Source: a virus. Taken from it: a DNA stretch of 55,706 nt. The stretch is taken from the IMG/VR virus record IMGVR_UViG_3300007345_000047, one strand, 5' to 3'. The notes under the pieces were generated by a model, which was given only the letters and a program-made list of their open reading frames with translations, ran no database searches and was not told the DNA's origin. Position numbers and translations under genes: made by a program. Shown one piece after another: positions 598 through 7,008 of the stretch (positions are counted from its first letter, which is position 1; each line of letters opens with the position of its first letter).

Positions 598-627
598 TTG
601 ACAGCGTAACGGATACGGGACTATGCT
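598..627 (+). promoter_or_regulatory. Sigma70-like early promoter candidate
   Basis: TTGACA (598-603), 18-bp spacer, TATGCT (622-627), just upstream of the first + strand start region. Confidence 0.4.
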
Positions 628-681
628 GCGAACGCAGCAACGGATTAACCAGCCCACAGGGCAAAACACAAGGAAAACGTA

Positions 682-768
682 ATGAATCAACAACTTAGAG
701 ACCACGGCATCAGCCTCCTGCTTATCGCAGCCCTTCTACTGGTACGCTTCGGAGGGGTCGCAGCATGA
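682..768 (+). CDS. Possible 28-aa hydrophobic leader peptide
   Basis: ATG 682 is preceded by ACAAGGA (668-674). The core is ISLLLIAALLLV. The TGA stop overlaps the ATG of the 765 gene (ATGA). Confidence 0.3.
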   Translation: MNQQLRDHGISLLLIAALLLVRFGGVAA

Positions 769-1532
769 ACGTACAATCACTGATAGCACGGGGCGCGATC
801 TTCTACTGCAGCACCAGCGGTGGCAAAGACAGTCAGGCGATGACAGCTCTTCTGGCACGCTTGATCCCTGCAGAGCAGCTGGTCTATGTGCACGCCAATC
901 TGGGTGAGGTCGAGTGGCACGGGGTGCAGGATCACATCAACGACACACTACCAGCCGGTGGTGAGCTAAACGTGGTCACGGCTAACTGGGCTGATGGCAC
1001 CGAGAAGACGCTGCTCGGCATGGTCGAGAATCGCGGTATGTGGCCGTCATCAGCCTACCGTCAGTGCACCAGCGACCTGAAGCGCAACCCGATCCAGAAG
1101 TTTATCCGCAGAGACCTGAAGGCACGCGGATCGAAGCTGGCCGTCAACTGCATGGGCATCCGATCCGAAGAATCCAAATCGAGAGCCAAGAACATCTCAG
1201 AGAAGTTCGTCGATGGCTGGAGGCTGGCCACTAAGGAGATGTGCGCGGCTGGCCGTGAAGTCTACGATTGGTATCCGCTCCACGACTGGTCAACTGAGAT
1301 GGTATTCGCCCAGATCAAGCGAGCTGGCCAGCAGCCACACTACGCATACGCCGAGGGCAACGAACGCCTAAGCTGCTGCTTCTGCATCATGGGCAGCAAA
1401 AACGACCTACGCAACGCCGCCCGTCTTCGCCCAGAGCTGGCAGCGAAGTACATCGCGCTGGAAGAGAAGATCGGCCACAGATTCACTGATAAGGCCACAC
1501 TGGCCGAACTGATAGCAACCGACGCGCAATAG
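765..1532 (+). CDS. PAPS reductase-like PP-loop ATP pyrophosphatase family protein
   Basis: N-terminal PP-loop FYCSTSGGKDSQAM and C-terminal Cys cluster ERLSCCFCIMG, typical of the PAPS reductase/DndC-like fold. Confidence 0.8.
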   Translation: MNVQSLIARGAIFYCSTSGGKDSQAMTALLARLIPAEQLVYVHANLGEVEWHGVQDHINDTLPAGGELNVVTANWADGTEKTLLGMVENRGMWPSSAYRQCTSDLKRNPIQKFIRRDLKARGSKLAVNCMGIRSEESKSRAKNISEKFVDGWRLATKEMCAAGREVYDWYPLHDWSTEMVFAQIKRAGQQPHYAYAEGNERLSCCFCIMGSKNDLRNAARLRPELAAKYIALEEKIGHRFTDKATLAELIATDAQ

Positions 1533-1592
1533 TCGAAACGGGGCGAGTCCCCGTCTGCAGGTCACGGCCTCCCTGCACTGATGAGACAGGCC
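1530..1592 (+). ncRNA. Type II hammerhead self-cleaving ribozyme, copy 1
   Basis: Order is UAGUC-GAAA, then stem III (ACGGGG/CCCCGU, loop CGAGU), then C1555 as cleavage site. Stem I follows (UGCAG 1556-1560 / CUGCA 1573-1577), then CUGAUGA (1578-1584), then GAC. The complete core is in the stem-II-open order. Confidence 0.85.
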
Positions 1593-1614
1593 AACAACTA
1601 CAAGGAATAAACGT

Positions 1615-2169
1615 ATGAACAAGTATCACTTCAATATTAAAGGATCAATGATCGACTCAGCCCGCGAGATACTAGGCGACCGAATGACAATGATCGGTAC
1701 GGGTGGAGGCTTCGATTATATTATGGTGCGATCCACCGAGAACCGTGACTTTGTGCTCTCCGGAGAGTGGTGCGATAGCTCGCCTGATTCGATGGATGAG
1801 TCCAGCAGCGTCTCGATCCAGAGGTGCAGCGCAGCAGAGTATGGCGAGTGGGATTGCGAGGGCTATGAGATCGCATTCGAGGGCACAGCCCAGCAGTGCC
1901 TGACATTTATGTCTATGCTCCCAGCTGTCTCTCTGGATGAGCGCAACGACGGCCTAGTGCGAGAGTTCGCCCAGATGTGCTCCGACCACTATCTGGAGAC
2001 GGGTGAAGACTTGCCCTATTCGACAGAGATGTTCGATGCCGACGGCACGAAGATCGTTAACCCGTGGATGGATGAGACCGGCAGATACCCCGTCGATCCC
2101 ACAGAGTACTACGGCATGGCATTCACAAAATGGTACGCGCCGACGCGAACCATTATGGGGAGTTTCTAA
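1615..2169 (+). CDS. Hypothetical protein (acidic)
   Basis: 184-aa ORF. The start is preceded by UACAAGGA (1599-1606). Confidence 0.6.
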   Translation: MNKYHFNIKGSMIDSAREILGDRMTMIGTGGGFDYIMVRSTENRDFVLSGEWCDSSPDSMDESSSVSIQRCSAAEYGEWDCEGYEIAFEGTAQQCLTFMSMLPAVSLDERNDGLVREFAQMCSDHYLETGEDLPYSTEMFDADGTKIVNPWMDETGRYPVDPTEYYGMAFTKWYAPTRTIMGSF

Positions 2170-2170
2170 T

Positions 2171-2356
2171 ATGAACCAGACTATATGGGTAACAATTGGG
2201 CATCAGTATGGGCGCGTCATCTACAAGCCAGCCAATGAGATCGCGAAGCTATTCGCAGATGTCGCTGGCACGCAGACTCTAACGCCCAATACCATCGCCC
2301 TGCTGAAGGCTGCAGGGTACACAATCAAAGTAGATCAACCGGAGGTGACAATATGA
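2171..2356 (+). CDS. Hypothetical protein (61 aa)
   Basis: ATG 2171 has GGGGAG 8 nt upstream. It is the in-frame tail of the listed ORF 2003..2356. Confidence 0.5.
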   Translation: MNQTIWVTIGHQYGRVIYKPANEIAKLFADVAGTQTLTPNTIALLKAAGYTIKVDQPEVTI

Positions 2357-2565
2357 TTATCGGAACTCTTATTGAAATGGCGCACACGTATGGCTTCCTC
2401 AATGCGGTAATGCTGCTGGCCGTGCTGGTCTGTCTCATTATCACGCTGATCGGGATGGTCACGGATCGCAGGGCTATGGAGCGGTTTCAGGCTGCGATGG
2501 CAACTAAGCGCGAGCAGCAGATGGTATGGGATCGCAACGAGTTCACAGATGAAATGATGAGTTGA
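2353..2565 (+). CDS. Small membrane protein
   Basis: GGAGG RBS and ATGA overlap with the upstream gene. One hydrophobic helix (FLNAVMLLAVLVCLIITLIGMV). Confidence 0.55.
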   Translation: MIIGTLIEMAHTYGFLNAVMLLAVLVCLIITLIGMVTDRRAMERFQAAMATKREQQMVWDRNEFTDEMMS

Positions 2566-2572
2566 GACTGTC

Positions 2573-2617
2573 GGTGACCTTCTAGCGAGGGTCACCCGCA
2601 GTAGCAATTCCGCTACT
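2573..2617 (+). promoter_or_regulatory. Conserved two-hairpin RNA motif, copy A
   Basis: Hairpin 1: GGTGACC-TTCTAGCGAG-GGTCACC (2573-2596). Hairpin 2: AGTAGC-AATTCC-GCTACT (2600-2617). The same architecture with different stem sequences occurs at 5344-5388. Confidence 0.5.
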
Positions 2618-2633
2618 TACAGGGAAACAAGTT

Positions 2634-3029
2634 ATGTCTAAGACAATTGAGCAGCAAATAGCAATAATCGAGAACGCATTAATGAGCCACTGCGAGGACT
2701 GTGTGAGCCGCCATGCAGAGCAGAGGCGAGTGGATAAAGCATTCGATGCACTCTGCAAACGGGCACTGCCATCAGGCCTGGCGAAAGCCTGGGACACAAA
2801 AAGCGAGCTCGAATTGACCGATCTATTAGAGTGGTACACCAGCGCAAATAGATTGCCGATGATGTCGGCAGATGAACTGCTTGCAGAGCTGCCAGACCTC
2901 GGGCTTACCGAGCGAGTGCAGGAATGCCACCGAGTGTGGCTGAACGCATTCTGTGAGGCGTGGGAGTTATTGGACGCGCCCAGCCAATCCGAAGAACTGA
3001 AGGCGGCCATACGCTGGATGAAGGTGTAG
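2634..3029 (+). CDS. Hypothetical protein
   Basis: 131-aa ORF. The start is preceded by UACAGGGA (2618-2625). Confidence 0.6.
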   Translation: MSKTIEQQIAIIENALMSHCEDCVSRHAEQRRVDKAFDALCKRALPSGLAKAWDTKSELELTDLLEWYTSANRLPMMSADELLAELPDLGLTERVQECHRVWLNAFCEAWELLDAPSQSEELKAAIRWMKV

Positions 3030-3094
3030 CCCAGACCGTCAATTAATGCTATAAAGCAATCCACACTCATTCATTTATTACAGGGAAAACAGTT

Positions 3095-3526
3095 ATGACA
3101 GCATTTACAGGTAAAATTGAAAACATCGAACGCATGGCCAGCAGCAGGAACGGCAACCCCCGCTACAAGTTCACCGTGGGCGGCCAGAGTGTCAAGCTGG
3201 CACCGGACAGCAGCTGGGGCTACTGCATCACCAACCTACGCAATCGCCACGTGACCGTAGAGGTCACGCCCCTACAGCATCTGGTTAAAAGCATCTGTGC
3301 TGCAGACCACTGGGAGGTCGAAGAGCTAGACGCATCTGGGGGATGGGAGAACAACTGGCACGATGAGACCGGCCAGCCCCAGACCTTCTCCACCAGAGGC
3401 GAAGCGCACGCAGAACTGGACGACCTGCTGGAGTCCGTGCAGCTGGCAGTGGCCGATGGTCACATGGCCGCAGAGTACAGCCGCGAAGATTACCGCGTAG
3501 TAATGGTCGGGGGGCGTGCAATATAG
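3095..3526 (+). CDS. Hypothetical protein
   Basis: 143-aa ORF. The start is preceded by UACAGGGA (3079-3086). Confidence 0.6.
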   Translation: MTAFTGKIENIERMASSRNGNPRYKFTVGGQSVKLAPDSSWGYCITNLRNRHVTVEVTPLQHLVKSICAADHWEVEELDASGGWENNWHDETGQPQTFSTRGEAHAELDDLLESVQLAVADGHMAAEYSREDYRVVMVGGRAI

Positions 3527-3586
3527 TCGAAACGGGGCGAGTCCCCGTCTGCAGATATCGGCCACCCTGCACTGATGAGACAGGCC
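3524..3586 (+). ncRNA. Type II hammerhead self-cleaving ribozyme, copy 2
   Basis: Same core and stems as copy 1: GAAAC 3529-3533, cleavage after C3549, CUGAUGA 3572-3578. It differs from copy 1 only at 4 loop-I positions. Confidence 0.85.
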
Positions 3587-3603
3587 ATTACACGGAGAAT
3601 GTT

Positions 3604-4332
3604 ATGAAGACAATCGAACTAATAGAACGCGCACCAATCTCGGAGGAGCTGAGAGCAGCCCTCCTTCCCGCAATAGCTAAGGCTGGCAAGTGGAGGGGGT
3701 CCCTGCTGGCCAACGCACCAGCCACCAATATCGCATGGCAGGTGCTGGTCGGTTTCGCTGCTCCAGCCCGCGTTAAGGTCTGGGGGATGATGGGCGAGAA
3801 CGCCGCACGATTCAATCACCTCGACGACCTAGCAGTGGCCAGCGGCATCAACTGGGCTAGAGCACTGAGCGCGACAGAGCCCTACGCACGCTGGAATGCC
3901 GATGGCCTAGATTTGGATCGCGATGCAATTCTGCGCGAGATCGAGCCGCACTTGCTACCAGCTAAGGCGACGGTAACTAAGAAGCGGGCGCATCCCTGCG
4001 TCGAGTTCCTAGATGTAGTGGCCGACGCACTGGCCGCTGGGTTCGGCGATATGCTGCACTTGGGGGAATTCAAAGACGATAGAGGCCATGACAAATTTAA
4101 GATAAAGCTGCTATGGGAGAACACTACTCTCAATGTGGTCATGGATAACAATGTGGCCGCGATCCGCGACCGTGCAGATCGCCTCGACCAGCAGATACGA
4201 GGTCATAAGGCCAAGGGAGAGGGCTCCACGCTAAAAGAGTACCGCAGGATGCGTAACTGGAAGCCCAGCTACAAAGTCGTGCCACTGAGCCCAGAGAGAG
4301 CCGCTGAGTGCGGCATGGAGATGGGGCTGTGA
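3604..4332 (+). CDS. Hypothetical protein
   Basis: 242-aa ORF. The start is preceded by UACACGGA (3589-3596). Confidence 0.6.
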   Translation: MKTIELIERAPISEELRAALLPAIAKAGKWRGSLLANAPATNIAWQVLVGFAAPARVKVWGMMGENAARFNHLDDLAVASGINWARALSATEPYARWNADGLDLDRDAILREIEPHLLPAKATVTKKRAHPCVEFLDVVADALAAGFGDMLHLGEFKDDRGHDKFKIKLLWENTTLNVVMDNNVAAIRDRADRLDQQIRGHKAKGEGSTLKEYRRMRNWKPSYKVVPLSPERAAECGMEMGL

Positions 4333-5333
4333 ACTACTATAACGAGTTCGACCCTTTCGCAGCCGCTTGGCTTGAAGAATTAATCAAAGACGGACTGATC
4401 CCAGCAGGGACAGTCGATCAGAGGAGCATTACCGATGTCAGACCCGAAGACCTTAAAGACTTTACCCAATGCCACTTTTTCGCAGGAATCGGCGGTTGGA
4501 GCTACGCACTCCAGCTTGCAGGATGGAGCCCCGATAGACCCGTCTGGACAGGATCACCCCCCTGCCAGCCTTTCTCAGTCGCAGGAAACCAAAAAGGTAA
4601 GGACGATCTTCGACACCTCTGGCCTGTCTTCTTCAATCTTATCCGCGAGTGTCAACCTGCAGTCGTTTTTGGTGAGCAGGTTGCCAGTGCGATTAGACAG
4701 TCTTGGTTCGACGATCTACAAACGGACATGGCGGCAGAAGGCTACGCCAGCGGATTGGCCGTACTGCCAGCTTGCAGCGTCGGTGCCCCGCACAAAAGGG
4801 AAAGACTCTTCTATGTCTCGGAGCGGATGGGCAACACCGAATACAATGGACGTACTGCCACTGAGGTCGGAAGAGGCTCTACGCAAGCAAGCGACAGGGG
4901 CGAGGAAGGGCAGGACGTTTCCAGCGAATCTACGGGAGCAGGTAGACCCTCGATCTCAGGAGATATACGCCGATGCGAGTTCTGTCCCCACGCCTACGAC
5001 GAAGAGCTTGGACGATACGGGTGCCCCAACTGTCTCGGTACAGGGTTGGACAACACCGAATACGCGGGACTGGAAGGACACAGCGGGGCAGTCAACGGAG
5101 GGGGAGGGCAACAGGCAGCGGATAGATCAAACGCCCAGGCAAGCGTTCCAGTTGATTGGAGCGATGTCTACTACCCCCGATTTAGGGACGGAAAATGCCG
5201 CCCAGTACCAACTGAATCCACGCTTTTCCCTTTGGCTCATGGGGTTCCCAACAGGGTGGGCATCCTGCGCGGAGCGGGTAACGCTATTGTCCCGCAAGTC
5301 GCAGCCGAAGTCATAAGGGCGTACATGGGCTGA
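4308..5333 (+). CDS. DNA (cytosine-5)-methyltransferase with internal zinc ribbon
   Basis: Motifs FAGIGG (I), PPCQPFS (IV), GEQV (VI), PHKRERLF (VIII), GAGNAIVPQV (X), plus CEFC-x12-CPNC. The start could instead be GTG 4329, which overlaps the upstream stop. Confidence 0.85.
   Translation: MRHGDGAVNYYNEFDPFAAAWLEELIKDGLIPAGTVDQRSITDVRPEDLKDFTQCHFFAGIGGWSYALQLAGWSPDRPVWTGSPPCQPFSVAGNQKGKDDLRHLWPVFFNLIRECQPAVVFGEQVASAIRQSWFDDLQTDMAAEGYASGLAVLPACSVGAPHKRERLFYVSERMGNTEYNGRTATEVGRGSTQASDRGEEGQDVSSESTGAGRPSISGDIRRCEFCPHAYDEELGRYGCPNCLGTGLDNTEYAGLEGHSGAVNGGGGQQAADRSNAQASVPVDWSDVYYPRFRDGKCRPVPTESTLFPLAHGVPNRVGILRGAGNAIVPQVAAEVIRAYMG
4435..5316 (+). other. 293-codon +1-frame ORF nested in the methyltransferase gene, with MTase-like motifs in its 3' half
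   Basis: Reads GWATPNTMD (4825-4851), GWTTPNTRDWKD (5044-5079) and LNPRFSLWLMGFPTGW (5212-5259). There is an in-frame ATG at 4813. The 5' part is low-complexity. Confidence 0.3.
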
Positions 5334-5343
5334 GAGCCTAACT

Positions 5344-5388
5344 GGGTAGTCTTCTCGCGAGGGCTACCCCTGATAGACTTTCCTATCA
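5344..5388 (+). promoter_or_regulatory. Conserved two-hairpin RNA motif, copy B
   Basis: Hairpin 1: GGGTAGTC-TTCTCGCGAG-GGCTACCC (5344-5369). Hairpin 2: TGATAG-ACTTTC-CTATCA (5371-5388). Confidence 0.5.
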
Positions 5389-5412
5389 ACTAGCATTTAC
5401 AAGGATAAAACT

Positions 5413-5802
5413 ATGAGCAATTACTTCTATAAATATAATGTGGCTCCGAAGGGTAAGAGAAGAGGCACCGTGAGATTCTTCAAAGCACTGTCGGACTGCA
5501 TCCAATTCGCAGAACTGCACGAGGGATCGCGACTAATGCACCGCAACCAAGTCGAGGGCGGCAGCGAGAGCCTGACCTGCACGCTCGACAGCCTGGATTC
5601 GGCCACACTAGGCACGTTCACCGACCGCGTGCAGCACGGATCGCGACCATCAGAACGGACAATCGATGTCTACGCGGAGGCGTACTCCTACGGATCGCAG
5701 GACAATGGCAAGCTGGTGGGTGTCATTTCCTGCTTTAAATTTGCCGACATCGATCAAATTCTAGCCACAAGGGGACTGTCCGATGTTATTTCTAACTCGT
5801 AA
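5413..5802 (+). CDS. Hypothetical protein
   Basis: 129-aa ORF. The start is preceded by UACAAGGAU (5398-5406). Confidence 0.6.
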   Translation: MSNYFYKYNVAPKGKRRGTVRFFKALSDCIQFAELHEGSRLMHRNQVEGGSESLTCTLDSLDSATLGTFTDRVQHGSRPSERTIDVYAEAYSYGSQDNGKLVGVISCFKFADIDQILATRGLSDVISNS

Positions 5803-5953
5803 GCCCCAACCAGGGCAGGATACAATACTCATAGGCGACAATATCCGCGTGGTTATACGCCGGATCGACGAGCACAATCAGGTACGGGTGGGCATCACAG
5901 CCCCGATAGAGATCAATATTGTCAGAGAGGAGATCGACAATCGTGGGAAATAA
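5783..5953 (+). CDS. csrA: CsrA/RsmA-family RNA-binding translational regulator homologue (56 aa)
   Basis: Not in the ORF track (too short). Own translation: MLFLTRKPQPGQDTILIGDNIRVVIRRIDEHNQVRVGITAPIEINIVREEIDNRGK. This aligns with CsrA MLILTRR..GE.L.IGD...V.V......QVR.G..AP....V.REEI. Confidence 0.8.
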   Translation: MLFLTRKPQPGQDTILIGDNIRVVIRRIDEHNQVRVGITAPIEINIVREEIDNRGK

Positions 5954-6140
5954 TCCGGATTACTACAGACTAGGCAACACCGTGTACGGTGCCAAGACGC
6001 GATGCAGTGACAGCCAGTGCGAGAGTAACTGCGTTTTTCCTGAGTGCTGCTGCGAGAAGAACGAGCATTCGACTGCAGCTGCAGCCGATAAAGCCGTGAA
6101 CTCTCTCAAGCTGCTGAAGAAGAAGGTCGAGATACTTTGA
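5943..6140 (+). CDS. Hypothetical Cys-rich small protein
   Basis: GTG 5943 has GAGGAG upstream; the track start is TTG 5919. The start is uncertain. Confidence 0.4.
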   Translation: MGNNPDYYRLGNTVYGAKTRCSDSQCESNCVFPECCCEKNEHSTAAAADKAVNSLKLLKKKVEIL

Positions 6141-6340
6141 TCTTCAAGCTGGCACGGGTGATCTTCGATGTCGTAGTGTTAACTACATCGAGCCCGTGCT
6201 CGCCGGAAATGGTACACTATCTACCATACGAGCCCGCCAATCCAGGGATAGTTAAGCTGGACGCACTACCAGATGGCGGGTGCATTATCCGATATAAGAC
6301 AGTGGACTTTAAGTTACCCGAAGACTGGGTGGGAGTATAA
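6137..6340 (+). CDS. Hypothetical protein
   Basis: ORF with a TTG start overlapping the upstream stop. Weak support. Confidence 0.3.
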   Translation: MIFKLARVIFDVVVLTTSSPCSPEMVHYLPYEPANPGIVKLDALPDGGCIIRYKTVDFKLPEDWVGV

Positions 6341-6341
6341 G

Positions 6342-6515
6342 ATGGCTAAGTCAGCAAGAGATAGAATGGCAGAGATGAGGGTGCGGCAGAAGGAGCTGGG
6401 GCGTAACAGTCGCCAGCTGTGGTTGACACCCTTCGAGGAGAACGAACTAAAAGTGCTGCTTGAGATATTACGAAGTGGCTCCGAGGTACGCGATCCCCAA
6501 GCCGACGATAGTTAG
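6342..6515 (+). CDS. Hypothetical small basic protein (57 aa)
   Basis: ATG 6342 lies directly after the previous stop. Sequence begins MAKSARDRMAEMRVRQKELGRNSRQLWLTPFEENELKVLLEILR. Confidence 0.45.
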   Translation: MAKSARDRMAEMRVRQKELGRNSRQLWLTPFEENELKVLLEILRSGSEVRDPQADDS

Positions 6516-6791
6516 AATCACTCCGATCCCCCACTTACCTACCCGAGTAGCACCGAGTAACTGGCCTTGCTGCTCGTGGTAGACCTTCACGAACTCCCGC
6601 ATATCCTCCGAATGCTTGCCTAAAGTGTGATTGATCTCGGTATGACGCGCAACAGCGTCCTTATTCATGGCTCGGAACTCCTGAGTGTGCTGGTTGAGAC
6701 GCTGCTCGTGTACCTCCGCAACCGTCTCAAGATGGCTGAGTCTTTTAGCGTGATCATCTTGTTTTTTCCATAATGCGGCAGCTTCTGGCAT
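6468..6791 (-). CDS. Tail-anchored coiled-coil membrane protein (XhlA-like from memory; possibly lysis-associated)
   Basis: Helical N-terminal part (RLSHLETVAEVHEQRLNQH) and a single C-terminal TM helix (WGIGVILTIVGLGIAYLG). Confidence 0.5.
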   Translation of the reverse strand: MPEAAALWKKQDDHAKRLSHLETVAEVHEQRLNQHTQEFRAMNKDAVARHTEINHTLGKHSEDMREFVKVYHEQQGQLLGATRVGKWGIGVILTIVGLGIAYLGATS

Positions 6792-6983
6792 AGCACGGGT
6801 CTCGGTTACATGAACAGTTTAACTAATTATCGCATTCGGAGGCTTGCTTTGTCACGCGGGGGATGCGTAGGATAGAGGGTACTCTCAAGCGATACGTGGG
6901 GTATCGCTGAGAATAGTCAAGGCATTCAACGGTTCGCCTCTTCACCAGGCTACTCAGCTGGGGACGAAATTACTGAGTTCTAG

Positions 6984-7008
6984 GGGATCCTTCGGGATCC
7001 CTTTTTTT
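6984..7008 (+). terminator. Rho-independent terminator, + strand orientation
   Basis: GGGATCC-TTCG-GGATCCC followed by seven T. In the - direction no U-tract follows the hairpin. Confidence 0.75.

Follow-up and report, generated by a model that had tools for sequence, protein, structure and literature searches.

RNase III sites between early genes are a textbook feature of bacteriophage T7, and the hairpin that remains at the mRNA 3' end is a known protective outcome in that phage. In the case of the R1.1 site, E. coli RNase III needs a minimum 11-bp helix between the tetraloop and the cut, and the loop sequence itself is irrelevant to the enzyme (PMC1540722). The distal box of R1.1 consists of a U-A pair and then a U.G pair, the latter being stringently required, given that its replacement by A-U lowers reactivity more than 30-fold and its replacement by G-U lowers it 50-fold (PMC1540722). 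A four-pair proximal box lies beside the cut, with an E. coli optimum of GC, AU/UA, AU, and AU/UA, and a G-C pair at position 2 of this box reduces the reactivity of a minimal substrate to approximately 0.06 through weaker binding (PMC1540722). The upper stem-loop product of R1.1 is 28 nt long (PMC1540722), and the cut thus falls 13 nt 3' of the loop.

The window analyzed here is the whole stretch of 55,706 nt (55.7 kb), which has the appearance of a complete or almost complete phage genome. A single plus-strand block of small genes takes up the left 7 kb; it is an early operon with one promoter-like site and one canonical terminator, and a two-hairpin RNA motif had been predicted to occur twice within it, at positions 2573-2617 (copy A) and 5344-5388 (copy B). 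We confirmed both copies on the plus strand, each between co-directional genes, and found no strong terminator downstream of them before position 6982 (Table 1). A PHROG scan of the large ORFs identified a DNA polymerase, a primase, a helicase, exonucleases, a Gp2.5-like SSB, and tail proteins. No phage RNA polymerase was detected among the large ORFs scanned, suggesting that the early block is transcribed by the host polymerase. The original prediction also counted four early gaps with structured RNA, a count that stands with the two hairpin copies and two type II hammerheads, the second of which scores below the gathering threshold of its Rfam model. UACARGGA sites were seen upstream of several early genes, including both genes 3' of the element, and a small ORF (5783-5953) matches the Pfam CsrA family (E = 7e-15).

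Each copy was said to sit just after a stop codon and just before a UACARGGA start region, which is what we observed. In copy A, the preceding stop codon (2563-2565) belongs to gene 2353-2565, hairpin 1 begins at 2573, and the next start codon is at 2634; in copy B, the preceding stop codon (5331-5333) belongs to a methyltransferase gene, hairpin 1 begins at 5344, and the next start codon is at 5413. The distance from stop codon to element is 7 to 10 nt and that from the end of the element to the next start codon is 16 to 24 nt, with the ribosome binding site (RBS) region in this downstream interval. A metagenome variant of the same phage (L154) lacks 5389-5398 ("actagcattt"), so that hairpin 2 of copy B adjoins UACAAGGA as in copy A, and the longer copy B spacer of the window is therefore a 10-nt indel. 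Another fragment (L001, positions 1-347 against window 4599-5044) has 99% identity to the window, falls to 92% over 4599-4840, and then jumps to 5044; the mismatched segment is a variable or indel stretch within the methyltransferase gene.

Table 1. Positions of the two hairpin copies and of related features of the early operon in the 55.7-kb window.
Feature	Position	Strand	Basis or remark
Sigma-70-type promoter-like site (TTGACA, 18 nt, TATGCT), head of early operon	598-627	+	
Hammerhead_II, intergenic gap near the copies	1531-1595	+	Rfam, 38.1 bits; gathering score 37
Hairpin 1, copy A: 10-bp stem GGUGACCUUC/GAGGGUCACC (2573-2582 with 2587-2596), loop UAGC (2583-2586)	2573-2596	+	
Linker CGC between the hairpins, copy A	2597-2599	+	
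Hairpin 2, copy A: AGUAGC-AAUUCC-GCUACU	2600-2617	+	Fold
RBS region UACAGGGA of gene 2634-3029	2618-2625	+	Directly 3' of copy A hairpin 2
Hammerhead_II, second copy	3525-3589	+	Rfam, 32.2 bits, E = 0.0016; below gathering score
Hairpin 1, copy B: 11-bp stem GGGUAGUCUUC/GAGGGCUACCC (5344-5354 with 5359-5369), loop UCGC (5355-5358)	5344-5369	+	
One-base linker, copy B	5370	+	
Hairpin 2, copy B: UGAUAG-ACUUUC-CUAUCA	5371-5388	+	Fold
RBS region UACAAGGA of gene 5413-5802	5398-5405	+	Read on sequence
Canonical intrinsic terminator (stem, UUCG loop, T-run), end of early operon	6982-7008	+	Terminator scan

Each copy folds into two hairpins in ViennaRNA, with z scores against shuffled sequence of -3.5 for copy A and -4.4 for copy B. 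The minus-strand fold of both copies is poorer because the G.U pairs turn into C.A on that strand, and the conserved G.U wobble thus fixes the functional strand as plus. Hairpin 1 had been described as 7 bp with a conserved 10-nt loop, a description that we revise, given stems of 10 bp (copy A) and 11 bp (copy B), both with 4-nt loops. The supposed loop is made up of three conserved pairs (C-G, U-A, and U.G) and a U-N-G-C tetraloop with a variable second base. At the tip of copy A, the closing pair C2582-G2587 has U2581-A2588 beneath it and then U2580.G2589, an arrangement that resembles a distal box; the distal-box-like pairs of copy B are U5353-A5360 and U5352.G5361. Only three mid-stem pairs differ between the copies of hairpin 1, and the GGU/ACC base and the tip are identical. 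The two stems had been reported to differ in sequence yet remain complementary, and in hairpin 1 two of the differing pairs changed on both sides (G-C to A-U and A-U to G-C) and the third on one side (C-G to U.G). Hairpin 2, with 6 bp and a 6-nt pyrimidine-rich loop, does differ in stem sequence with complementarity kept, and its changes are compensated under either plausible alignment; this covariation was described by hand, and MAFFT gave no structural alignment of hairpin 2. An alternative fold of copy A places the first 3 bases of hairpin 2 in a lower stem of 5 bp (2567-2571 with 2598-2602), which a C.C mismatch separates from hairpin 1, and the two folds are nearly iso-energetic, with the MFE at -26.2 and the centroid (the lower-stem alternative) at -26.1 kcal/mol. 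Copy B has no lower stem. The 12-mer tip CTTCTNGCGAGG occurs exactly twice in the 55.7 kb, where approximately 0.03 exact chance matches are expected, and a covariance model (R1) run on the window recovered only these two copies, at 42.5 bits (A) and 38.1 bits (B).

The T7 early gaps were folded for comparison, with site names and approximate positions other than that of R1.1 presumably as in Dunn and Studier 1983; hairpins are present in the matching gaps. The upper hairpins of the T7 RNase III sites are of the same size as hairpin 1, and their letters are partly the same: R1.1 (T7 5861-5884) reads AAGGUCAUUC-GCAA-GAGUGGCCUU, and CUAGCGAG is common to T7 R0.5 and copy A. Like R1.1 and its minimal form uR1.1, the window element lies in the intercistronic spacer of what appears to be a host-transcribed early polycistronic mRNA. 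The likeness to R1.1 extends to a 10-bp upper stem with a 4-nt loop, to C-G, U-A, and U.G at pairs 10, 9, and 8 from the base, to a stem that begins GGU, to strand-fixing G.U pairs, and to the presence of several copies per genome with a conserved stem. In both copies, the distal box (U-A followed by U.G) occupies pairs 9 and 8 from the base of the 10-bp core, in the R1.1 register. Relatives of the window element also share with the T7 sites an internal loop and a lower stem.

With regard to the 11-bp minimum, copy B has 11 bp, and copy A has 10 bp plus the C.C mismatch and the optional 5-bp lower stem. The two-tier helix of T7 sites, with an upper stem, an internal loop where the cut falls, and a lower stem, totals about 20 bp; it is found in copy A only as the iso-energetic alternative and is not found in copy B, whereas most relatives without a U-tract have one. 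The proximal box is off the E. coli optimum, with U-A, G-C, G-C, and then a mismatch (A) or G-C (B), under a rule measured for the E. coli enzyme only. Unlike R1.1, then, the window element has a proximal box that is GG/CC-rich rather than AA/UU, a second hairpin in place of the lower helix, and RNase III cutting that is predicted. A family covariance model (R2) run on T7 did not score the T7 sites, suggesting that the likeness is one of architecture and tip and not of overall homology. Distal-box identity would explain the conserved wobble pair, the drifting loop, and the internal loop that relatives have just after the tenth pair. The reading that we favor, although with no better than even confidence, is that hairpin 1 is a host RNase III recognition hairpin of the T7 early type, closest to R1.1, and that it would be cut at the junction of the two hairpins. 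Several candidate roles had been named for the motif, and it is the RNase III option that gains specific support, from the R1.1-register distal box, a helix length at or near the 11-bp minimum, and the copies in T7-like Pseudomonas phages described below.

Other identities were compared with the same element. Its tails, CGCAGUAGC and CUGAUAGAC, contain no U-tract, the copies are absent from the terminator scan list, and the operon has its own canonical terminator, so the earlier view that these are not ordinary intrinsic terminators holds. As in an intrinsic terminator, a G+C-rich hairpin closely follows a stop codon, and in some of its carriers the same stem, with a UUCG loop, forms a true terminator; unlike such a terminator, the window copies are without the U-tract that the phage's own terminator has. 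Curated Rfam models gave no match at either copy, whether the gathering score or an E value of up to 5 was applied, and none at the hairpin in the further carriers scanned (E up to 0.1). Like the type II hammerheads, the hairpins directly follow a stop codon, and the result is presumably the same, namely, an mRNA cut between cistrons. However, hammerheads cut themselves, whereas the hairpins would need a host enzyme, and there is no sequence or structural relation between the two. A CsrA-binding hairpin was rejected, given that GGA is absent from the loops (UAGC/UCGC and AAUUCC/ACUUUC) and the UACARGGA site lies 3' of the element and not within it. An integron attC site was also rejected; copy B has GCCTAAC upstream with no GTTRRRY partner, and the inverse cores were not found. 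Similarly, an N4-type hairpin promoter would require other stem and loop sizes, and no virion RNA polymerase was identified; a T7-type phage promoter is not indicated, since the Phi-S1 promoter consensus is different; a CRISPR-repeat mimic was set aside after a scan of 185,579 species' genomes showed no arrays; and target-site duplication of a mini-element is not compatible with flanks that are inconsistent across lineages. Mimicry of tRNA or rRNA was dismissed as well, the one resemblance being a loose one between the 5' arm and the 16S 3' tail. In three contigs (L237, L235, and L249), the 5' arm GGUCACCUUCUU is loosely like the 16S rRNA 3' tail GAUCACCUCCUUA, and the 3' arm is similar to an extended Shine-Dalgarno sequence (GGAGGGUGA); both resemblances may be coincidence.

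The genes flanking the copies are orphans, and for this reason relatives of the hairpin were sought by pattern search. Cultured phages gave no nucleotide match to the first 8 kb, and protein-anchored searches with the two downstream genes recovered only the same phage. The hairpin was also missing from the surroundings of homologues of the first early gene (80 loci, 1.24 Mb) and of the methyltransferase gene (44 loci). The closest relative (G001) has 77% identity in the first gene, and its sequence stops 1 kb after that gene, with no copy there. With the loop, tip, and 3' arm fixed and the 5' arm free, 48 viral loci matched, and among these, complementarity of the 5' arm was confined to the fragment of the window phage itself and to two unrelated lineages (L084/L086 and L085); the complementary loci are all intergenic and co-oriented with genes. 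Strict scans of metagenomes and of the 185,579 species' genomes found further lineages. Once the loop was freed, 38 of 54 viral loci, in 23 contexts, were fully paired hairpins, compared to 5 of 48, in 4 contexts, for a control stem whose order was permuted while its composition and pair types were kept, indicating that the stem is over-represented. The recurrence of the hairpin exceeds chance. Every collection scan imposed the CUUC/GAGG pairs, and tip conservation beyond the window is unconstrained by the scan only in the Pseudomonas phage cassette and in copy 2 of contig L228. No match was found in the E. coli genomes searched, and nothing was found in the literature for the literal hairpin sequence. 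A tblastx comparison of the carriers with the window detected no common protein within the compared segments.

The contexts fall into two classes. Members of the first have UUCG, UUAG, GCAA, or AUAU loops with U-rich tails and are terminators; they include a site between major head and tail genes (L211) and a bacterial site after a maf-like gene (L141), both with a U-tract. Given that the same stem with a UUCG or UUAG loop and a U-tract serves as a late terminator between head and tail genes in other phage contigs, the stem is not specific to processing sites. Members of the second class, to which the window copies belong, have UNRC, UCUU, UCGU, GCAU, or CUGAGU loops without U-rich tails, and UNRC loops are over-represented among the members without a U-tract. 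Most lineages of the second class have hairpin 1 above a 1- to 3-nt internal loop and a 4- to 7-bp lower stem. What had been presented as a two-hairpin motif therefore holds in part: hairpin 1 recurs elsewhere, and the two-hairpin unit is limited to the window phage and contig L134, in which a second hairpin follows after a 3-nt linker and has a loop resembling that of copy B. Hairpin 2 is missing from most related elements elsewhere.

In three lineages, a cassette with common flanks lies between different, unrelated small genes, as if early genes had been swapped at spacers. The lineages with differing flanking genes are L084/L148/L144/L221, Phi-S1 versus UNO-SLW4 (the lineage of L308 and L312), and L143/L159/L228. 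Contig L228 is a complete 39.7-kb genome with terminal repeats, in which a cassette of approximately 100 nt (outer stem, hairpin, and conserved RBS region) flanks one small gene near the genome end. Its copies (263-291 and 746-775, minus strand) are 480 nt apart, and one has a 3-nt loop. In G008, G005, and Phi-S1, the genomes checked that are complete or almost so, copies are near the genome end, in the early region. A DUF3800-VII RNA motif (RF02967, 77 bits) was also seen in a provirus contig, at L085:4442-4529 on the minus strand, approximately 800 nt from the hairpin.

A BLAST search with copy A found about 30 cultured T7-like Pseudomonas phages of the genus Pifdecavirus, including Phi-S1, Pf-10, phiIBB-PF7A, the vB_PpuP series, and UNO-SLW. 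In Phi-S1 (2244-2271) and Roomu-1 (2038-2065), the early genes gp5 and gp6 flank the hairpin, which is 3' of annotated sigma-70 promoters and 5' of the RNA polymerase gene and is unannotated in the records. The Pifdecavirus hairpin is like that of the window in having a 10-bp stem, GGUGGCCUUC/GAGGGUCACC, which is one base off copy A, and in being early, intergenic, and 3' of sigma-70 promoters. It differs in its loops (UCUU, UCGU, GCAU, or CUGAGU), in its conserved flanks (GUUAAUC ... CGUUAAAUCC), and in the absence of hairpin 2. Within this lineage, the stem is invariant and the loop changes in both sequence and length, and a 66-nt cassette is retained in Pseudomonas phages with non-matching flanking genes. 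In Phi-S1, the 115-nt gap 5' of the RNA polymerase gene (L309:4134-4247) contains a promoter-like AACCCTCACCCAAACAGAGAG as well as several repeats of the CCTTTAAGG type.

This distribution could also be read more broadly. It is possible, and we put it forward tentatively, that hairpin 1 belongs to an undescribed, sequence-conserved class of host-RNase recognition hairpins, carried as a mobile intergenic cassette by unrelated phages whose hosts differ in G+C. Its consensus would be GGUNNYCUUC, a loop, and GAGGGNNACC, often with UNRC loops, and it would move between different early genes. Together with hairpin 2, it would form a "cut and cap both ends" module beside the hammerheads, such that enzyme-dependent and self-cleaving segmentation would act in one operon. 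We also considered that no specific endonuclease is involved, which we judge doubtful on balance. In that case, hairpin 1 would block 3'-to-5' exonucleases or pause or attenuate the polymerase as a passive stability or insulator hairpin, and hairpin 2 would shape the 5' UTR. The high stability of the copies (see the z scores above) and their terminator-like position right after stop codons are consistent with this, as is the use of the same stem with a U-tract as a real terminator after the maf-like gene and between head and tail genes. However, neither window copy has a U-tract or was flagged by the terminator scan, and a passive role gives no reason for a kept U.G wobble and an invariant tip while the mid-stem covaries and the loop drifts. 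Conservation of a wobble pair would not be expected of a hairpin that acts through stability alone, and the regular internal loop of the relatives after 10 bp would be left unexplained. Alternatively, the hairpin could be the site of another sequence-specific RNA-binding protein of the phage or host, such as a translational operator for the downstream gene, perhaps acting jointly with the CsrA homologue of the phage and the UACARGGA sites. The conserved tip and base sequences and the excess of UNRC loops in members without a U-tract would suit a binding site, and both a CsrA homologue and a CsrA-like site 3' of hairpin 2 are present. We nevertheless consider this explanation unlikely, given that GGA occurs in neither loop, that hairpin 1 ends 37 to 43 nt before the start codon, clear of the RBS, that carriers have no detectable window protein (tblastx, compared segments), and that in the Pseudomonas phages the loop varies freely, even in length.

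A role at the DNA level appears somewhat less probable again. The element could be a recombination hotspot or a cassette boundary that shuffles early genes, similar to the promoter-stem-loop cassettes of T4-type phages or to attC-like sites, and the placement of one cassette between different genes in three lineages, along with the two neighboring copies in L228, could be taken in this way. Against this, an RNA role, or at least a single-stranded one, is indicated by the conserved U.G, by the further G.U pairs, and by an orientation that strictly follows that of the genes, neither attC core sites (RYYYAAC...GTTRRRY) nor a recombinase nearby were found in the window, and shuffling could be a by-product of any conserved spacer. 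The element also has features of the HK022 put RNAs, with two adjacent stem-loops in two copies in early transcripts, acting in cis. A put-like RNA would bind the elongating host polymerase and suppress pausing or termination, as putL and putR do in HK022; put RNA binds the zinc-binding domain of the polymerase beta' subunit and requires no phage protein (PMC9378689). The two stem-loops of the window, 1 to 3 nt apart and twice in early transcription, would need no U-tract for such a role. On the other hand, the put RNAs differ in size, irregular structure, position, and known mechanism, being about 70 nt long and shortly 3' of early promoters, with bulges and a triplex in addition to two long irregular stems (PMC9378689). 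The window element consists of 45 nt of perfect short hairpins located 2 and 4.7 kb from the promoter, there is no strong terminator between it and position 6982 to be suppressed, and most relatives are without hairpin 2, making this explanation very unlikely. We regard an unrecognized self-cleaving ribozyme as the least probable explanation of all. It is suggested by the two hammerheads in the same operon, and Weinberg et al. in 2015 reportedly found novel ribozymes adjacent to known ones. However, no Rfam ribozyme model matches, and two perfect helices with linkers of only 1 to 3 nt leave no junction and no conserved unpaired core. In addition, a hammerhead is absent from all other carrier contigs scanned. 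The self-cleaving role included among the original candidates is thus unsupported.

Under the RNase III reading that we favor, the host RNA polymerase would transcribe the early operon (about 628-7008) as a single long mRNA, which just past the stop codons of gene 2353-2565 and the methyltransferase gene would fold into hairpin 1. RNase III would bind the 10- to 11-bp helix and cut approximately one turn of the helix down from the loop, in the short linker that leads to hairpin 2. Transferring the R1.1 distance of 13 nt 3' of the loop, we infer a cut between 2599 and 2600 in copy A and between about 5371 and 5372 in copy B. The upstream mRNA would then keep hairpin 1 at its 3' end, where it would block 3' exonucleases as in T7. 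The downstream mRNA would start 0 to 1 nt from hairpin 2, followed by the RBS, and this 5'-terminal stem-loop may slow attack by RNase E. Together with the two hammerheads in neighboring gaps, such cuts would divide the operon mRNA into separately stable pieces. Several features run counter to this proposal. The G-C pair at proximal-box position 2, which weakens the binding of minimal substrates by the E. coli enzyme, does not fit the E. coli rules, and the need of copy B for an 11-bp helix stacked on hairpin 2, which is no documented form of substrate, argues against it. The lack of a T7 signal under model R2 and the terminator use of the same stem count against it as well.

In summary, our analysis describes a hairpin family that matches no Rfam model, for which a literature search with the literal sequence gave no result, and that occurs in unrelated phages. 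The tandem-hairpin form and its coexistence with hammerheads in one operon are likewise new. The family would provide a simple signature for finding such sites, namely, a 10-bp stem with UA/UG under the loop and no U-tract. T7 R0.5 and R1.1 already serve as insulators for synthetic operons (PMC3643576), and cassettes of the kind described here could be useful for the same purpose. If our reading is correct, T7-style processing of early messages by RNase III would extend to an uncultured, unrelated phage as well as to Pseudomonas phages in culture whose records leave the element unannotated. One operon would then mix ribozymes and a host enzyme for message cutting, which raises the question of why both are used. 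A possible answer is that some genes, and not others, would in this way be independent of host RNase III levels.
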